The notes: generated by a model from the sequence alone, not told the origin. Counted from the stretch's first letter, positions 4,744 through 15,461 are shown. The stretch is DNA of 64,000 bases from Anaeromyxobacteraceae bacterium (GCA_035656915.1 DASRRJ010000018.1:49816-113815); one strand, 5' to 3'. Made by a program: numbers and translations.

Positions 4744-6741
4744 CTACTCCGCGCCCGCGGCGAGGGCCGTGGGCGCGGTGAACTGCGGGTGCGCGCGGAT
4801 GAGCTCCAGCGCGTCGGCGGAGGCGTCCGCCGGGAACGGGGAGGAGGAGCGGGCGAGCCGGGCCAGCCAGCGCGCGTCGAGCGGCCGCACCAGATCGTCG
4901 CGCGACGTCGCCGCGGCGGTGGTCTCGGCCTTGGGCCCCGAGGCGTCGCCCGCGCCCACGAAGAACCCGGCCAGGAGGAGCGCGCTCCGCACCGCGGTGG
5001 CGGTGCTGTAGGTGAAGAGGGTCGCGCCGGGCGCGCAGCGCAGGCGGACCGCGCGGAACGCGGCGGCTGTCCAGAGCGCCGGGTTCTGCTTGGGAGAGAA
5101 GGGATCCCAGAAGACGAGATCGGCCCGCGCCGGCTCGCGCGCCAGCGCCTCGAGGGCGTCGCCCTCTACCAGCCTCCAGCCGGCGGCCGCCTCCTGGTGG
5201 CGTCCGGTGGCGAGGATCGCCCGGGCCGCGGCGAGGTCCTCGCCGGAGAGGCCGAGCCGGGCGGCGCCCTCGTCGGAGGTCGCGAGCGAGAGCGCGCCAA
5301 GGTCGCGCTCGAAGCTCACCAGCTCCAGCCGGCGCGCGCCGGGCGGCGCCGCGCGGGCGGCGCGCAAGGCGGCGAGGGCGTTCGAGGCGGCCCCGAGCCC
5401 CACGTCGAAGAGCACCAGGGGAGCGCCGCGCTCCGTGAGGCGGGCCGCGAGGCGCGACTGGGCCACGTAGAGCTGCTCCGACTCGGCGGTGGGGCCGATG
5501 ACCGGGTGCATCACCTCGCCCACCACCCGGTCGCGAACCGCGGCCGCGCCCTCGCTCGTCTGCACGATCTCGAAGCGGTCCGGCGGCGGCGGCACCGGGA
5601 CTCCCGGCTGGCGCCCCTCGGGGTCGTGCTCGTGCCGGTCGATGGCCGCGAGCGTCTCCCGGGCGAAGCGCTCGTAGCGCCCCTCCTCGATGGCGGCGCG
5701 GATGCCGCGCATCAGCTCGAGGTAGTGGTGCAGGTTGTGGACGGCGAGCAGCCGCGGCCCGAGCGGCTCCTTGCACTTCATGAGGTGGTGCAGGTAGCCG
5801 CGCGGGTGGGCGCGGCAGGTGGGACAGGCGCAGACGGGGTCGAGCGGCTCCTGCGAGAGCCGGTGATCGCCGCGGGTGAGCCGCACCCGGCCGGTGGAGG
5901 TGAAGGCGGTGCCCTGCCACGCCATGACGGTGGGGATGACGCAGTCGAACATGTCCACGCCGTGCGCGACCATCTCCAGGATGTCGGGCGGGGTGCCCAC
6001 GCCCATCAGGTAGCGCGGCCGGTCCTCCGGGAGCAGCTCCGCCGCGCGGGCCACCACCTCCGAACGTTGGGCGCGGGTGTCGCCGACGGCGAGCCCCCCG
6101 ATGGCGAAGCCATCGAAGGGGTGCTGGGTGAGGAAGCGCGCCGACTCGGTCCGGAGCTCGGGCGAGAGGCCGCCCTGGACGATGGCGAAGAGGGCCTGCT
6201 CCGGGTCCTGCCGCGCGGCGAGGCTGCGCAGCGCCCAGCGGTGGGTGCGCTCCATCGCCTCGCGGATGGCGCTCGGCTCGGCGGTGGAGGGGAGGCAGAT
6301 GTCGAGCACCATCATCACGTCGGAGCCGAGCGCGGTCTGCACCTCGATCGACCGCTCCGGGGAGAGGTGGTGGTAGCGGCAGTCGACGTAGCTCTTGAAG
6401 CGCGCCCCCTCCTCGGTGATGGTCCGGTCCTTCGCGAGCGAGAAGATCTGGAAGCCGCCCGAGTCGGTGAGGATGGGCCGGTCCCAGCCCATGAAGCGGT
6501 GCAGGCCACCGAAGTGGCGCATCGCCTCTGGACCGGGCCGCAGCAGCAGGTGGTAGGTGTTGCCGAGGACGATCTCGGCGCCGAGGCCGCGCAGGTCCTC
6601 GGGCGTGAGGCCGGTGACGGTGGCGCGGGTCCCGACCGGCATGAAGGCCGGGGTCTCCACCCGCCCGTGGGGGGTGGTGAAGGCGCCGCGCCGCGCGCGG
6701 GTCCCCACGTCGCGGGGGCCTGGGTGGAAGCGGAAAGGCAT
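4744..6741 (-). CDS. tgt: Queuine tRNA-ribosyltransferase (Tgt) fused in-frame to an MnmC-like (DUF752) SAM methyltransferase domain
   Basis: The ORF was trimmed to Met140 (ATG at 6741; MPFRFHPGPRDVGTRARRGAFTTPHGRVETPAFMPVGT...). It has the Tgt motifs LTDSGGFQIF, AIVQGGL and the C-terminal Zn site CxCxxC...H. There is no stop before a roughly 280-aa C-terminal extension with DLVFWDPFSPKQNPALWT, which is typical of the MnmC N-terminal methyltransferase domain. 665 aa in total. Confidence 0.75.
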   Translation of the reverse strand: MPFRFHPGPRDVGTRARRGAFTTPHGRVETPAFMPVGTRATVTGLTPEDLRGLGAEIVLGNTYHLLLRPGPEAMRHFGGLHRFMGWDRPILTDSGGFQIFSLAKDRTITEEGARFKSYVDCRYHHLSPERSIEVQTALGSDVMMVLDICLPSTAEPSAIREAMERTHRWALRSLAARQDPEQALFAIVQGGLSPELRTESARFLTQHPFDGFAIGGLAVGDTRAQRSEVVARAAELLPEDRPRYLMGVGTPPDILEMVAHGVDMFDCVIPTVMAWQGTAFTSTGRVRLTRGDHRLSQEPLDPVCACPTCRAHPRGYLHHLMKCKEPLGPRLLAVHNLHHYLELMRGIRAAIEEGRYERFARETLAAIDRHEHDPEGRQPGVPVPPPPDRFEIVQTSEGAAAVRDRVVGEVMHPVIGPTAESEQLYVAQSRLAARLTERGAPLVLFDVGLGAASNALAALRAARAAPPGARRLELVSFERDLGALSLATSDEGAARLGLSGEDLAAARAILATGRHQEAAAGWRLVEGDALEALAREPARADLVFWDPFSPKQNPALWTAAAFRAVRLRCAPGATLFTYSTATAVRSALLLAGFFVGAGDASGPKAETTAAATSRDDLVRPLDARWLARLARSSSPFPADASADALELIRAHPQFTAPTALAAGAE

Positions 6742-6849: not shown

Positions 6850-7227
6850 GTGAAGACCACTCGATTCGGCAAGGCGCTCTGGTTCCTGGCTGTGCTGCTC
6901 GTCGTCGCCGTCGCCGGCCTGGCCCTGTACACCTGGGGCACGCTGAGCTTCAGCTACTCCAGCGGCGATCGGGTCGGCTACGTGCAGAAATTCTCGAAGA
7001 AGGGCTGGATCTGCAAGACCTGGGAGGGCGAGCTGGCCATGGTCACCCTGCCCGGTGCCATCCCGGAGAAGTTCTACTTCAGCGTCCGCAAGGATGCGAC
7101 CGCGAATGAGATCAACCGGCTGCTCGGGCGGCGGGTCAAGCTCCAGTACTCGCAGCACCGCGGCGTGCCGACCACCTGCTTCGCCGAGACCGAGTACTTC
7201 GTGGACGACGTGAAGCCGGTCGACTGA
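6850..7227 (+). CDS. Small membrane-anchored hypothetical protein (GTG start)
   Basis: This is the tail of a long shadow ORF. An in-frame GTG precedes a TM helix (ALWFLAVLLVVAVAGLALY) and then a compact hydrophilic domain (YVQKFSKKGWICKTWEGELAMVTLPGAIPEKFYFSVRKD...). GC3 is high. Confidence 0.5.
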   Translation: MKTTRFGKALWFLAVLLVVAVAGLALYTWGTLSFSYSSGDRVGYVQKFSKKGWICKTWEGELAMVTLPGAIPEKFYFSVRKDATANEINRLLGRRVKLQYSQHRGVPTTCFAETEYFVDDVKPVD

Positions 7228-7323: not shown

Positions 7324-7560
7324 CTAGCGGATGAACCGCGCCGGCCGGTGCCCCGCCGGCCGCGCCTGGACCAGCTGGCCCGCGCAGTCGGCCGACGCGA
7401 ACTCGACCGGGCCGGCCTGGACCGGTGGTGGCCGCCGCGAGGTCTCCGCCACGAAGCCGGCGCCGAGGGCGGCGCAGAAGGCGAGGACGGCGAGGCCGCG
7501 CAGGCCGGCGAGGCGGGACGGAGTGGGGAAGTGCACCGCGGGGGCGGGGGTGGTGGTCAT
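7324..7560 (-). CDS. Small membrane protein downstream of an ECF sigma factor (possible anti-sigma/regulator)
   Basis: 78 aa with one TM segment (LAGLRGLAVLAFCAALGAGFVA) and high GC3. It lies immediately downstream of the ECF sigma gene on the same strand. The overlapping + ORF is Arg-rich and low-complexity. Confidence 0.4.
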   Translation of the reverse strand: MTTTPAPAVHFPTPSRLAGLRGLAVLAFCAALGAGFVAETSRRPPPVQAGPVEFASADCAGQLVQARPAGHRPARFIR

Positions 7561-7632
7561 GTCGGAGTTCCTCCTGACGTCTGGACAGGAGGGCGGCGCG
7601 GATCCGACGGATGGGATCCGGTCACGGTCGGG

Positions 7633-8229
7633 TCAGTCGAGCAGCCCCTGCTCCCTCGCCAGTCTTGCCAGCCGTTCCTTCAGCCGCTCGAAGCGCTTGG
7701 AGACCGCGTCGGGGGTCGGCGCGCTCCCCTCGGCGGCGACGACGCCGGCGATCTCGGCCCAGGAGAGCTGCTGGTCGAGCCGCAGCGTGAGGAGCGACTG
7801 GTCCTCGGCGGAGAGGCTGGCGCGCAGGCTGGCGAGGGCGTCGCGCTGCCGCTCCACGCGGATCGCCGTGCCGGTGCGGACCTCCTCGGCGAGGGCCGAG
7901 GCCTCGCCGGTGGCGAAGGGGCGCGCCCGTCGGCGCCAGGCCTCGTCGCGCAGGTTGAGCGCGGCGTCCCAGGCGATGCGGTAGGCCCAGGTGCGAAGCC
8001 CGGCCTCGCCGCGGAAGCGGGGCAGCCCCTTCCACAGGTTCTCGGCGAACTGCGAGAAGGCGTCGCGCGCGTCGGCCTCCTCGCGCAGCACCGCGCGCAG
8101 ATAGCGCAGGATCTGGGGACCGAGCGCGCGGATGGCCGCGGTGGCCGCGCCCTCCCCGTCCCCGGCGCCGAGGAGCGCTCGCACCCGCGCCTCCAGCGTC
8201 TCCAGCTCGCCCGGCCCGGCGTCGCTCAC
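7633..8229 (-). CDS. ECF-type RNA polymerase sigma-70 factor
   Basis: Sigma-70 region 2 (ILRYLRAVLREEADARDAFSQFAENLWKGLPRFRGEAGLRTWAYRIAWDAALNLRDE) and region 4 (LSAEDQSLLTLRLDQQLSWAEIAGVV) are present. The start was set at a GTG (VSDAGPGELE...) that overlaps the upstream kinase stop as GTGA. The longer ORF start would overlap the kinase extensively. Confidence 0.75.
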   Translation of the reverse strand: MSDAGPGELETLEARVRALLGAGDGEGAATAAIRALGPQILRYLRAVLREEADARDAFSQFAENLWKGLPRFRGEAGLRTWAYRIAWDAALNLRDEAWRRRARPFATGEASALAEEVRTGTAIRVERQRDALASLRASLSAEDQSLLTLRLDQQLSWAEIAGVVAAEGSAPTPDAVSKRFERLKERLARLAREQGLLD

Positions 8230-11171
8230 CGCGCCGGCTCCTGCGGACCGAGCCGCCGCCGCAGCGCCTTCACCTCGGCCAGGTAGGGGGCGTCGGCATC
8301 GGCGCGCGCCCAGAGGCGGAGGAGGTGGTCCGCCGCCTCCCGGGCCCCGTGGCGCTCTCCCAGGCGCTCCCGGGCCAGCGCCTCCAGGTAGAAGCTCCGG
8401 GGGTACATCCAGCTGCGCGCCACGCCGCCCGGCACCCGCCGGAACCGCTCGAGCGCGGCGGCCGCCTCCGCGTCCCGTCCGCTCGCGAGGGCCCACTCGC
8501 CCAGGAGCCAGAGCGCCGGCCCGCGCACGTCGAGGCTGGGGCGCTCCGCGAGGGCCCGCACCGAGCCCAGCGCCGCGGCCCGCTCGCCGCGCCGCCACGC
8601 CGCCGCCGCGTCGAAGAGCTGCCGGCCCTCGCCGGGCGGGAGCTCCGCCGCCGCGGCCTTCGCCTCCTCGGCGGCGCCGCTGAGCTCGAGCGCCAGCGGC
8701 AGGCCGCCCCAGTGCGGCTTCGGCGCCTTCCAGAGCCGGAGCGCCTCGGCGCGAGCCGCGTCCTGCGAGCGGTCGCCGAGCAGAAAGGCCAGGCGCTGCG
8801 CGGAATGCTCGGGGGTCATGGGCAGCTCCCGCGGCAGGCCGTCGAGGGCGCGCTGCGCCTCGCGCAGCCGCCCCTGGTAGGAGAGCTGGTTCGCGAGCAG
8901 ATAGAGCCCCTTGATCCGCTCCAGCCCCTGGCCGCGCTCCGCCGACGGGCGGACCAGGGCCTCGGCCTCGGGGTAGCGCTCGGCGAGGGCCAGCGCGTCC
9001 GCCAGCGCGGCGCGGGAGTGATGGCCGCCGTCGAGCTCCAGCGCGCGGCGGTCGTCGGCGACGGCGTCCTCCATCCGACCCGCGGCCTCGGCCCCCTGCG
9101 CGCGGGCGCGCCAGGCGGCGGCGCTCGCGGGCGCCTGCTCCACCCAGCGCCGGCTGCGCGCCTCCAGCTCGGCGCCGCGGCCCATCGAGAAGAGGCTGTC
9201 CATCAGGTGGAGCAGCGCCGGTTCCCAGGTGGGGTCGAGCGCCAGGGCCCGCTCGAAGAGCGGCAGCGCCTCCTCGGTCCGGCCCTCGTGGAAATAGAGG
9301 TCGGCCGCCATGTAGAGGGCGTCCTTGTCCTGCGGGTAGGCGGCGACGGCCTGTGCGTAGAGCCCGTGCGCCTCCTCGTTGCGCCCGTCCATGTGCGCCT
9401 TCCAGGCGCGGATGAGGAGCCGCTCCTTCTCCGGCGCCCGCTGCGCGTCACGCAGCGCCTCCTCGATCTCCGCCTTGCGGGTGGCGGCGTCGAGCCCGGT
9501 GAACTCCCCCAGGTAGGCGATCTGGTAATGGGCGAGGCTGAAGGAGGGGTCGGCCGCGATGGCGCGCCGGAACCCGGCGAGCGCCTCCTCGTACCGGGTG
9601 GCGTCCATGGCCTGCTCGCCGTGGAAGTAGGCAGAGTAGGCCTCGAAGCTGCCGGTGGTGGCGGCGGCCACCTGCACCCGCGAGGCCTTCACCTCGGCCG
9701 GCGTCTCGCGCAAGAGCGTGCGGGTCCGCTCCGAGAGCCGGTCGATCATGCCGGGGACGCTCGCCTTGCCGCGCCCCTCCTCCTTGAGCGTGAAGAGGTA
9801 CTCGCTCGTGTCGGGGTCGAGCGCCTTGAGCTCGATGGCGTAGAGCTGGTCGAAGCGGTGGATGGTGGCGAGCACCAGGGCCCGCGCCCCGGCGCTGCGG
9901 GCCACCTCCCGGCCGAGCGGCTCGTCCACCCCGCCCGCGCTCTCCTTCCCGAGCTGGCGGAGGAGGTCGAGCATGCGCACGCGGGTGAGCACCGCGAGGC
10001 GGCGCGACTGCTCGAGGGAGGTGATGAGCATGCCGGAGAGGCCCGACAGCTCCGGGTCGCCGGTCTGGTTCACGAAGTCGGCGACCGCCACGGTGATCCG
10101 CTCGGACGGCACCGCCGCCAGCTCCCGAGGGGGGGCGACGCCGCGGCGATAGGCCAGCCCCAGCGCGAGGCCGGCGACGAGCAGGAGCGCCAGGGCCACG
10201 GGCCACCACCGGGCGAGCCTCCGGTGGGCTCGCACCGGGCCGCCGGGGGCGGGCGGGGTGCGCTCGAGCTCGCCGCGGAAGGCGGCCAGCGCCGCCGCCA
10301 CGTCGCCGGCGTCGCGGGGGCGGTGCACCGGGTCCTTCGAGAGCATGCGGGCGATGAGGGTGCCCACCGCGGGGACGCCGGGCACCTCGAGCGCCGGCGG
10401 CGCCCGCACCCTGCTGGCCGCCTTGCCGCGATCGCCCTCGGGGAAGGGGAGCCGCCCCGAGAGCAGCCGGTAGAGCATGACCCCCAGCGCGAAGACGTCG
10501 GTGCGCTCGTCCTCCGGTGCCCCGCGCCACTGCTCCGGGGCCATGTAGGCCGGGGTGCCGCCGTCCACCCGTCGCCGGCCGAAGGCGTGGGCGAGGCCGA
10601 AGTCGAGCACCTTCACCTGCCCGTCGGGGCAGAGGAAGACGTTGCCCGGCGTGAGGTCGCGGTGGACCACGCCCTGCCGGTGGGCGCAGGCGAGCCCCTC
10701 CGCGACCGCGTGGGCGATCCGCAGCGCCTCGGCGATCCCGAGCTCCCCCTGCCCGAGGCGCGCGGAGAGCGTCTGACCGCGCAGGAGCTCGAGCACCAGG
10801 TAGGGCCCGGCCTCGCAGCGCCCGACGTCGTAGAGGGTGACGATGTTGGGGTGGGAGAGGCGCGCCGCCGCCTCGGCCTCGCGCAGGAGCTGCTCGTCGA
10901 CCGTGCCGCGGTCGGTGCTCGCGCGCACCGCCTTGAAGGCGACCCCGCGGCCGAGCTCGGTGTCGCGCGCCTCCCAGACCTGGCCGAAGCCGCCACGGCC
11001 GAGCTCCGAGAGGAGCTCGAACCGGCCGACGATCGCCCCGGGCCGGAGCACCTCGTCCCAGGCCGAGCCGCGCGCTCCCTCGGGGAGGCGCGCCAGCTCG
11101 TCCAGGATGGATGACAGCCCTTCGGGCACGCGGGCCTCCGTCGGAAGCACCGCGTAGCCTAACCGGGGCAC
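8226..11171 (-). CDS. Ser/Thr protein kinase with TM segment and C-terminal TPR repeats
   Basis: The Hanks kinase motifs are present: GRGGFGQVW, AFK, HRDLTPGNV, DFGLA and APE. A single TM follows (WWPVALALLLVAGLALGLAY), then roughly 600 aa of TPR-like repeats. The exact start is uncertain (GTG at 11171 is followed by a rare TTA codon). Confidence 0.85.
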   Translation of the reverse strand: MPRLGYAVLPTEARVPEGLSSILDELARLPEGARGSAWDEVLRPGAIVGRFELLSELGRGGFGQVWEARDTELGRGVAFKAVRASTDRGTVDEQLLREAEAAARLSHPNIVTLYDVGRCEAGPYLVLELLRGQTLSARLGQGELGIAEALRIAHAVAEGLACAHRQGVVHRDLTPGNVFLCPDGQVKVLDFGLAHAFGRRRVDGGTPAYMAPEQWRGAPEDERTDVFALGVMLYRLLSGRLPFPEGDRGKAASRVRAPPALEVPGVPAVGTLIARMLSKDPVHRPRDAGDVAAALAAFRGELERTPPAPGGPVRAHRRLARWWPVALALLLVAGLALGLAYRRGVAPPRELAAVPSERITVAVADFVNQTGDPELSGLSGMLITSLEQSRRLAVLTRVRMLDLLRQLGKESAGGVDEPLGREVARSAGARALVLATIHRFDQLYAIELKALDPDTSEYLFTLKEEGRGKASVPGMIDRLSERTRTLLRETPAEVKASRVQVAAATTGSFEAYSAYFHGEQAMDATRYEEALAGFRRAIAADPSFSLAHYQIAYLGEFTGLDAATRKAEIEEALRDAQRAPEKERLLIRAWKAHMDGRNEEAHGLYAQAVAAYPQDKDALYMAADLYFHEGRTEEALPLFERALALDPTWEPALLHLMDSLFSMGRGAELEARSRRWVEQAPASAAAWRARAQGAEAAGRMEDAVADDRRALELDGGHHSRAALADALALAERYPEAEALVRPSAERGQGLERIKGLYLLANQLSYQGRLREAQRALDGLPRELPMTPEHSAQRLAFLLGDRSQDAARAEALRLWKAPKPHWGGLPLALELSGAAEEAKAAAAELPPGEGRQLFDAAAAWRRGERAAALGSVRALAERPSLDVRGPALWLLGEWALASGRDAEAAAALERFRRVPGGVARSWMYPRSFYLEALARERLGERHGAREAADHLLRLWARADADAPYLAEVKALRRRLGPQEPAR

Positions 11172-14375: not shown

Positions 14376-15461
14376 TCACCAGCGCTCGTCAGCCCCTTTT
14401 GGGGCTAGCGGCCAGGGAGGCGCGGAACGGCCGTTTATCGTCGTCCCTCCGTGGAAGAAGGGGGCGCCGTTGGCGATGAAGTCGGCCGGGAAGTCGAGCC
14501 GGGGGGCGGTGAGGGCGTCGAGGCGGGCCACCTGTCCGGGGGTGAGCCGGACGTCGGCGGCGCCGAGGTTGTCGTCGAGCTGGGCCAGGGTGCGGGCGCC
14601 GATGATGGTGGAGGTGACCCCCGGGCGGCCCTGTACCCAGGCGATGGCCACGCGCGACACGGTGGTGCCGAGCTCGGCGGCGATCTCCCCGAGCGCGTCG
14701 AGCAGGTCGTAGGTCTTCTCGCCGAGGTTGCGGGTGGCCCAGTCGCCCCGGCCGGCCTGCTGCCGCCCGTGCTCCTCGCGCCGGTACTTGCCGGAGAGCG
14801 CGCCGCTCTTGAGCGGCGACCAGGGGGTGACCCCCATCCCGAGCTCGCGCGCCATCGGCACCAGCTCGCCCTCGACGGTGCGCTCCAGCAGCGAGTACTC
14901 GACCTGGATGGCGACCAGCGGGGACCAGCCGTGAAAGCGCGCCAGCAGCTGCGCCTCGGCGCACTTCCAGGCGGGCGTGTCGGAGAAGCCGACGTAGCGG
15001 ACCTTGCCCGCGCACACCAGGTCGTCGAGCGCGCGCATCGTCTCGTCGATGGGCGTGGTGGCGTCCCACGAGTGCATCCAGTAGAGGTCGACGTAGCCGG
15101 TCTGCAGCCGGCGCAGGGACTGCTCGCAGGCGGCGACGAGCGACTTCCGGCTGGCGCCGCCGCCGTTGGGATCGCCGGGGTAGAGGTTGGAGAAGAACTT
15201 GGTGGCGAGCACCACCCGGTCGCGCTTCTCGGGGTACCGCCCGAGGTGGTCGCCGATGATCTTCTCGGAGTGGCCCTTGGTGTAGGCGTTGGCGGTGTCG
15301 ATGAAGTTGCCGCCGCGCTCCAGGAAGCGGTCGAGGATGGCCTCGGAGTCGGCCACGCTCGAGCCCCAGCCCCAGTCCTCGCCGAAGGTCATGGCGCCGA
15401 GGCAGAGCGGGGAGACGCGCAGGCCGGAGCGGCCCAGGGTGACGTAGTGGTCGAGGGGCAT
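14376..15461 (-). CDS. Aldo/keto reductase family oxidoreductase
   Basis: 361 aa. The N-terminal LGRSGLRVSPLCLGAMTFG, IDTANAY...GHSE, GKVRYVGFS and the substrate loop are typical of AKR (Tas/YghZ-like). Confidence 0.9.
   Translation of the reverse strand: MPLDHYVTLGRSGLRVSPLCLGAMTFGEDWGWGSSVADSEAILDRFLERGGNFIDTANAYTKGHSEKIIGDHLGRYPEKRDRVVLATKFFSNLYPGDPNGGGASRKSLVAACEQSLRRLQTGYVDLYWMHSWDATTPIDETMRALDDLVCAGKVRYVGFSDTPAWKCAEAQLLARFHGWSPLVAIQVEYSLLERTVEGELVPMARELGMGVTPWSPLKSGALSGKYRREEHGRQQAGRGDWATRNLGEKTYDLLDALGEIAAELGTTVSRVAIAWVQGRPGVTSTIIGARTLAQLDDNLGAADVRLTPGQVARLDALTAPRLDFPADFIANGAPFFHGGTTINGRSAPPWPLAPKGADERW

Follow-up and report, generated by a model that had tools for sequence, protein, structure and literature searches.

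Gene layout of the kinase-sigma locus

The DNA analysed here is a stretch of 64,000 nucleotides from an Anaeromyxobacteraceae bacterium (GCA_035656915.1, DASRRJ010000018.1:49816-113815), referred to below as the window. Positions 7,324 to 11,171 of the window encode a receptor serine/threonine (Ser/Thr) kinase, a sigma factor of the extracytoplasmic function (ECF) type and a 78-residue membrane protein, as listed in Table 1. All the relevant genes are located on the minus strand, and the base composition of the region is 74% GC. The kinase gene ends within the start codon of the sigma-factor gene. At the junction (...gcg cgG TGA gcg...), the kinase stop codon TGA occupies 8226-8228 and the sigma start codon GTG occupies 8227-8229. 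The GTGA overlap may reflect translational coupling of the two genes. The same overlap was found in 13 loci of relatives with the kinase before the sigma factor and in four with the reverse order, and this recurrence is more than chance.

The kinase domain carries the complete set of catalytic motifs (VAFK, HRDLTPGN, DFG and GTPAYMAPE). The Pkinase fold and the catalytic Lys, HRD, DFG and APE elements place the protein among the Hanks-type (eukaryotic-like) Ser/Thr kinases. According to the profile comparison with the PDB, the nearest solved structures are PknA and PknB; PknS, considered as the closest solved kinase, was not outstanding. A single transmembrane (TM) helix follows the kinase domain, and about 640 residues are located beyond the helix. 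The CsgG-like match in this part is weak. Residues 324-642 give a TIGR04510-like match, and the C-terminal region matches only TPR proteins in the PDB. The kinase domain is cytoplasmic and is followed by one TM helix, so that a periplasmic location is predicted for the TPR region. In front of the kinase domain, the N-terminal motif EGLSSILDELARLP follows the pattern pG-[LI]-[ST]-x-L-[LIM]-x-x-[LIV]-A..P, which is shared by most sigma-adjacent kinases, the pseudokinases described below among them. We take this motif as a putative marker of the sigma-linked kinase clade and as a candidate docking element.

The sigma factor matches TIGR02937 with 51.7 bits (cutoff 42.9) over residues 30-187, and the Pfam Sigma70_r2 model (PF04542) with an E value of 1e-8. 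The match to the superfamily model and the presence of the sigma2 and sigma4 domains only are the features of an ECF (group 4) sigma factor. The AlphaFold2 (AF2) model, with a predicted local distance difference test (pLDDT) score of 86, shows the sigma2 and sigma4 helical bundles. The Pfam region-4 models did not match the sigma factor, whose sigma4 domain has a short insertion. In the PDB, the sigma factor is matched best by the ECF02 proteins AlgU and RpoE. The sequence is 100% identical to a 198-residue NCBI protein of an Anaeromyxobacteraceae metagenome-assembled genome, 877 homologues were found, and homologues have lengths of 189-200 residues. These results support the GTG start.

Table 1. 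Features of the kinase-sigma locus and of related small-protein genes
Feature	Residues	Coordinates	Strand	Basis or description
Small membrane protein, 78 aa		7324-7560	minus	Single TM helix (aa 20-38) between a Thr-rich N-terminus and a short Pro-rich tail
ECF-type sigma factor, 198 aa		7633-8229	minus	TIGR02937, PF04542, AF2 model
Arg-rich sigma2 end and linker, RRRARPFATGEAS	99-111	7897-7935	minus	Contains the candidates T107 and S111
Region 2.2, DARDAFSQFAENLW	53-66	8032-8073	minus	Ungapped alignment to AlgU and 7qh5
GTGA overlap, kinase stop/sigma start		8226-8229	minus	4 nt, from sequence
Receptor Ser/Thr kinase, 981 aa		8226-11171	minus	Pfam Pkinase E 8.5e-46, several TPR families, CsgG E 1.6e-5
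Predicted periplasmic sensor region		8913-10118	minus	CsgG-like module (aa 352-442), then TPR repeats (aa ~515-753); Pfam, NCBIfam
Transmembrane helix, WWPVALALLLVAGLALGLAY	322-341	10149-10208	minus	Single segment in hydropathy scan
Kinase catalytic domain	52-285	10317-11018	minus	Pfam Pkinase (PF00069)
N-terminal motif, EGLSSILDELARLP	17-30	11082-11123	minus	Precedes kinase domain, ~25 residues before glycine loop
NfnB/GltD-type oxidoreductase with rubrerythrin tail, ~1007-1036 aa		11200-14223 or 14310	minus	
Aldo-keto reductase		14376-15461	minus	Gene order: aldo-keto reductase, Nfn fusion, kinase, ECF sigma, 78-aa ORF
Small-protein members at other sigma loci		L001:8670-8936, L018:5702-5926, L041:2087-2281, L039:1902-2102, L040:957-1151, L065:5749-5949, L055:6664-6840, L077:2000-2188		

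Conserved linkage and neighbouring genes

Relatives of the sigma factor were scanned using one genome per species, and 244 sigma relatives were obtained. The best 80 of the 244 all belong to Anaeromyxobacteraceae, and several sigma paralogues per genome are frequent among them. Gene neighbourhoods were counted at 84 sigma loci, all of Anaeromyxobacteraceae; the counts are approximate, because the gene caller, based on the GC content of third codon positions (GC3), assigns the wrong orientation to a few genes whose antisense frame has the same GC3 (e.g. at L001). Among the neighbours of the sigma factor, a protein kinase is much the most frequent (45 of the 84 loci), and the other recurrent neighbours reflect only synteny within two types of orthologous locus. 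The kinase gene is upstream and co-directional, downstream and co-directional, or divergent. The adjacency is thus conserved in three gene orders across paralogues and species.

The sigma-adjacent kinases form one clade and are at least 49% identical to the kinase domain of the window, with pseudokinases at 42-49%. For the remaining kinases of these loci the identity is 33-38%, and the EGLSSILDELARLP-type motif is absent. The catalytic motifs are intact in 37 of the 41 cognate kinases, and many partner kinases are tail-anchored or membrane-bound. Pairwise identities of the sigma factors and of the kinases are correlated (r = 0.65), and this r was reached in none of 2000 permutations. The sigma family comprises 446 clusters at 50% identity (E up to 1e-30). 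Among the distant members, a Pkinase gene is next to or near the sigma gene in five of the six sampled, and these kinases carry other sensor domains, namely WD40, Tricorn-type propellers, or AAA_16 together with TPR_12.

Four of the sigma-linked kinases (L063, L069, L014 and L078) are pseudokinases of 307-466 residues with HRG or HRA and DFS in the catalytic motifs and with no TM helix. All four still carry the N-terminal clade motif. In addition, the 611-residue protein P0230 is an apparent fusion of a degenerate kinase domain, an HxxxCxxC motif of the kind found in ZAS (zinc-binding anti-sigma) domains and a sigma factor of the family studied here; the fusion is either real or an artefact of gene calling. 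The motif kept by the pseudokinases and the P0230 fusion suggest that physical docking between sigma factor and kinase matters.

The 78-residue open reading frame (ORF) downstream of the sigma gene has an AGGAGG sequence at 7570-7575, 9 nt ahead of its ATG, and its third-position GC of 0.96 is like that of the surrounding real genes. A homologue in A. paludicola (E 4e-12) is unannotated, and an annotated collagen-like gene on the opposite strand overlaps this copy with its 3' end. The proteins of this family (~58-88 residues) begin with a Thr-rich segment, continue with a conserved TM helix (lCAALaGGFvAev) and end in a Pro-rich tail of divergent sequence. The N-termini are rich in Thr and Ser (MTTT, MTSS, MTHTT), and several tails end in a CxxxxC-like pair. 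According to the matches of a hidden Markov model, a family member is located directly upstream or downstream of the sigma gene in about 16 of the 84 loci, mostly with a kinase as well. The 78-residue protein is probably an accessory of the module. In the 72-bp spacer between the sigma gene and this ORF, a possible 7-bp hairpin (CGGATCC...CGGATCCG, 7580-7615, minus strand) was observed at palindromic GGATCC sites, with no T-run after it.

A classical anti-sigma factor has a cytoplasmic domain of at least about 45-90 residues, an HxxxCxxC motif in the case of ZAS proteins, or a match to a family model. The 78-residue protein has about 19 residues before the TM helix and no HxxxCxxC motif, and neither the protein nor its family alignment matched the Pfam, NCBIfam and PDB profiles. 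By these features it is not an anti-sigma factor of the class I/II anti-sigma domain (ASD), ZAS, RskA or FecR type. None of the known anti-sigma domains was matched among the neighbours examined. Next to the kinase-less paralogues, a classical anti-sigma factor was also looked for, and the neighbours were only housekeeping genes and two small-protein families.

The initial annotation had described a membrane kinase with one TM helix and a long TPR region, a stop/start GTGA overlap with an ECF sigma gene, and a kinase-sigma module with no classical anti-sigma factor. The results above agree with all of these points. It had also stated that only a 78-residue single-TM protein follows. The ORF and its single helix were confirmed, whereas the word "only" understates the case, as the protein belongs to a recurrent partner family.

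Some kinase-less loci show further small genes. At one orthologous type (L042, L043, L047, L048, L051, L053, L056-L058 and L060-L062), two genes follow the sigma gene. The first encodes a 94-132-residue protein that has a TM helix at its N-terminus and a conserved EHHTxxDRxAIDRIVAEHA motif at its C-terminus, and the second encodes a 101-residue Lys/Cys-rich protein. Either of the two could be an alternative regulator at the kinase-less loci. Downstream of another kinase-less sigma gene, a 382-residue secreted protein is encoded (L016:6742-7890, plus strand), and its N-terminal module is similar to the CsgG/TolB_N-like segment that comes after the TM helix of the kinase.

Upstream of the kinase gene, the Nfn fusion consists of a DHOD-B-type electron-transfer module, an NfnB/GltD-like part with Fer4_20 and a pyridine-nucleotide-disulphide oxidoreductase, and a C-terminal rubrerythrin/ferritin-like domain. 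On the other side of the module, two more genes were noted. The gene at 4744-6741 (minus strand) encodes a tRNA-guanine transglycosylase (TGT) that continues at its C-terminal end into an MnmC-like S-adenosylmethionine methyltransferase domain (Methyltransf_30), and this fusion is also annotated in A. paludicola (664 residues). Between the TGT gene and the 78-residue ORF (6850-7227, plus strand), a conserved protein of about 111-125 residues with an N-terminal TM helix is encoded; it has a 125-residue counterpart in A. paludicola and no family match. When bipartite -35/-10 motifs were enumerated in the DNA upstream of 79 modules, only GC-rich noise was obtained, and a scan for sigma-70 promoters and terminators was uninformative in DNA of this GC content.

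Sigma-factor sites and known kinase-linked systems

In region 2.2, the residues D53-A-R55-D56 align on the canonical DAED, and S59-Q60 align on the canonical QE, in the comparison with AlgU and 7qh5. The acidic DxxD is retained, and the QE pair is replaced by SQ. Position 56 is D or E in 147 of 150 family representatives, and position 55 is variable, with S or T in 13 of the 150.

The closest functional parallel is ECF43, in which the sigma factors are phosphorylated directly by adjacent kinases (PMC13147305, PMC8999054). In both V. parahaemolyticus (EcfP/PknT) and X. citri (EcfK/PknS), the sigma gene adjoins a gene for a transmembrane Ser/Thr kinase and there is no anti-sigma factor. The locus here has the same context, and the expected logic would be the same, from kinase to sigma factor to regulon. 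Region 2.2 of ECF43 has no acidic DxxD and carries QTTA with a phospho-Thr instead (PMC8999054, PMC13147305). In contrast, the sigma factor of the window keeps the acidic DARD and not the uncharged QTTA, whose third residue is the conserved phospho-acceptor Thr, and it has SQ for the canonical QE.

The sequence families are also different. The EcfK sequence, rebuilt from published peptides, gave 88.2 bits against PF07638 (Sigma70_ECF) and 167.7 bits against TIGR02999. The sigma factor of the window and four members of the wider family matched PF04542 only, with no match to PF07638 or TIGR02999 even at E values up to 1-10. The hhalign profile comparison of the window sigma factor with EcfK gave a probability of 0.3%. 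These results indicate that the sigma factor is not a member of ECF43, and the initial description as "ECF43-like" is to be given up.

Other ECF groups (ECF59, ECF61, ECF62, ECF217, ECF267 and ECF283) are associated with kinases by genomic context only (Casas-Pastor et al. 2021, PMC7826278). These minor groups are reported to have retained a motif like DAED, and Ser/Thr residues are located within it or close to it (PMC8999054). As in the locus here, a kinase is present in the conserved neighbourhood and an anti-sigma factor is absent. ECF59-62 and ECF217 are planctomycetal, ECF283 is actinobacterial, and ECF267 (28 proteins) is confined to Proteobacteria, linked to kinases and in one clade with ECF02 (PMC7826278). 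The most plausible home of the sigma factor is one of these minor kinase-linked groups. ECF267 fits circumstantially, by the group description only: Proteobacteria-only, kinase-linked and of the ECF02 clade. ECF267 is, however, described with a FecR-like/TPR putative anti-sigma factor, and none was seen among the neighbours examined here. In mycobacteria, the SigE and SigH anti-sigma factors are substrates of the Hanks-type kinase PknB (PMC8999054). The SigE/RseA and SigH/RshA systems are alike in that such a kinase feeds into ECF sigma activity. They differ in two ways: the target of the kinase is a ZAS anti-sigma factor of the classical type, and the kinase gene is not next to the sigma gene; no ZAS protein is present here.

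Several Ser/Thr residues of the sigma factor are conserved. Among the 84 close relatives, S59 is kept in 83, and S or T is present at position 111 in all 84, at position 30 in 79, and at positions 107 and 119 in 77 each. Among the 150 wider representatives, position 59 is S in 98 and otherwise A, G or Q, and is never acidic. Position 107 is S/T in 96 and D/E in 15, and position 111 is S/T in 86 and D/E in 25 (together 74%). The linker site T106 of EcfK is S/T/D/E in 76.9% (PMC13147305), and the share at position 111 is similar. S59 and an acidic residue at position 60 showed no tendency to exclude each other (Fisher p = 0.43).

The phosphosites of the EcfK linker are T104-S110, of which T106 is critical (PMC13147305). 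T107 and S111 share this linker segment. In both proteins a conserved Ser/Thr is located about 8 residues past the basic end of sigma2 (T106 in EcfK, S111 here). In the AF2 model, T107 is in the loop 102-108, and S111 is in the first turn of the helix 109-137. The initial annotation had proposed looking for a Ser/Thr-bearing insertion in region 2, and none is present in region 2.2. The conserved S59, T107 and S111 are candidate phospho-acceptors only, put forward from sequence conservation.

Proposed mechanism and alternatives

We propose that the receptor kinase directly phosphorylates and activates the co-translated ECF sigma factor, with no classical anti-sigma factor between them. The proposal is analogous to ECF43, and we give it about an even chance. 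The periplasmic CsgG-like/TPR region of the membrane kinase would sense an envelope or extracellular cue. The activated cytoplasmic Hanks-type domain would then dock with the sigma factor and phosphorylate it on a conserved Ser/Thr, most probably T107 or S111 in the sigma2-sigma4 linker, with S59 in region 2.2 being less likely. Phosphorylation would switch on a productive interaction between the sigma factor and RNA polymerase, and hence the sigma regulon. We infer all three elements, i.e. the sigma factor as the direct substrate, the modified residue, and activation by phosphorylation. As the sigma factor belongs to a different sequence family from ECF43, the details probably differ.

Several observations weigh against this proposal. 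Region 2.2 keeps two acidic residues, and thus an intrinsically inactive sigma factor of the ECF43 style is not evident. The invariable lack of D/E at position 59 suggests a structural role of S59. As S111 is located at a helix start, the exchange between S/T and D/E could reflect a helix N-cap preference. Variants with E111 were predicted to occur without kinases, and this prediction failed: a Pkinase gene is present within about 5 kb in each of the three sampled, and in one case it is the immediate neighbour. No kinase is encoded within 4.5-6 kb of about half of the close paralogues, and these nevertheless keep the same Ser/Thr residues. The mirror-tree correlation falls to r = 0.17 at sigma identities below 0.7, and the signal is mostly at the level of orthologues. 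Finally, the four pseudokinase partners indicate that binding matters at least as much as catalysis. The kinase domain might instead be mainly a membrane-tethered, anti-sigma-like binder that uses its N-terminal motif and kinase lobe; the signal or autophosphorylation would free the sigma factor, and phosphorylation of the sigma factor would be secondary or absent. This alternative, which we consider unlikely, would account for the motif retained by the pseudokinases, the P0230 fusion of pseudokinase, HxxxCxxC and sigma factor, the membrane attachment of many partner kinases, and the acidic region 2.2, as the sigma factor need not be intrinsically inactive. However, the complete catalytic motifs of the 37 cognate kinases would be needless for a pure binder, and P0230 could be a fusion made by gene calling in a metagenome. 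The kinase-less paralogues with the same residues would also agree with mere co-expression, in which the sigma factor drives the operon, the kinase has other targets, and the sigma factor is set by transcription or by an unlinked regulator. Hanks-type kinases usually have many substrates (PMC13147305), and the phospho-acceptors of the sigma factor are candidates only. Nevertheless, one kinase clade stays adjacent to the sigma factor through shuffling of gene order, start/stop overlaps and changes of sensor domain. Adjacency kept across such a large family is hard to explain without a direct functional partnership, and co-expression alone is judged quite improbable.

The small membrane protein gives two other possibilities. 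It might be a minimal non-classical anti-sigma factor or a tether, and the kinase might act through its Thr-rich cytoplasmic N-terminus, as PknB does in the RseA/RshA systems. The Thr/Ser-rich N-terminus followed by a conserved TM helix, the position of the family directly beside the sigma gene, mostly together with a kinase, and the action of PknB on the SigE and SigH anti-sigma factors are consistent with this idea. However, the family is detected in only about a fifth of the loci and in none of the 12 orthologous loci with a kinase of the 820-residue type before the sigma factor. Its cytoplasmic part is far below the size of any known anti-sigma domain, and there is no similarity to any anti-sigma family. 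Such a role has little probability in our estimation. Alternatively, the system may have three parts: the N-terminal docking helix of the kinase holds the sigma factor at the membrane, also in the case of pseudokinases, and the Thr-rich, hitherto unannotated small membrane protein of about 60-80 residues is a co-substrate, functions as a minimal anti-sigma factor or modulates the kinase within the membrane. We consider this design rather unlikely. If true, it would differ from classical anti-sigma control as well as from the ECF43 phospho-switch, and it would have been expanded to several paralogous copies per Anaeromyxobacteraceae genome. Joint redox sensing with the upstream Nfn-rubrerythrin fusion, as considered in the initial annotation, is very improbable. 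The Nfn gene is indeed upstream of the kinase gene and co-directional with a 28-bp gap, its product is 93% identical in A. paludicola, and the Nfn-kinase-sigma arrangement is wholly syntenic there. However, the fusion is adjacent in only one of 92 related loci (A. paludicola), orthologous and paralogous modules are located in unrelated contexts, and no redox cofactor domain is present in the sensor region, which is predicted to be periplasmic. The Nfn adjacency is thus lineage-specific, the redox idea has no family-level support, and a functional link was rejected on synteny.

That the receptor kinase phosphorylates the sigma factor directly is the reading we prefer, and the module is a further case of the known kinase-linked sigma factors, not of the ECF43 type. 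To our knowledge, ECF43 is the only group for which direct sigma-factor phosphorylation has been demonstrated. The remaining kinase-linked groups may work differently, as the acidic motif of region 2.2 is kept (PMC8999054). As a genome annotation, the locus is an otherwise ordinary signalling module. The sigma family is well defined for study, as it is large and has the cultivable hosts A. paludicola and A. oryzae. The sites S59, T107 and S111, the candidate docking motif, the natural pseudokinases and the small accessory protein are handles for such a study. Thus, the family could show whether kinase-to-sigma signalling has more than one mechanism.

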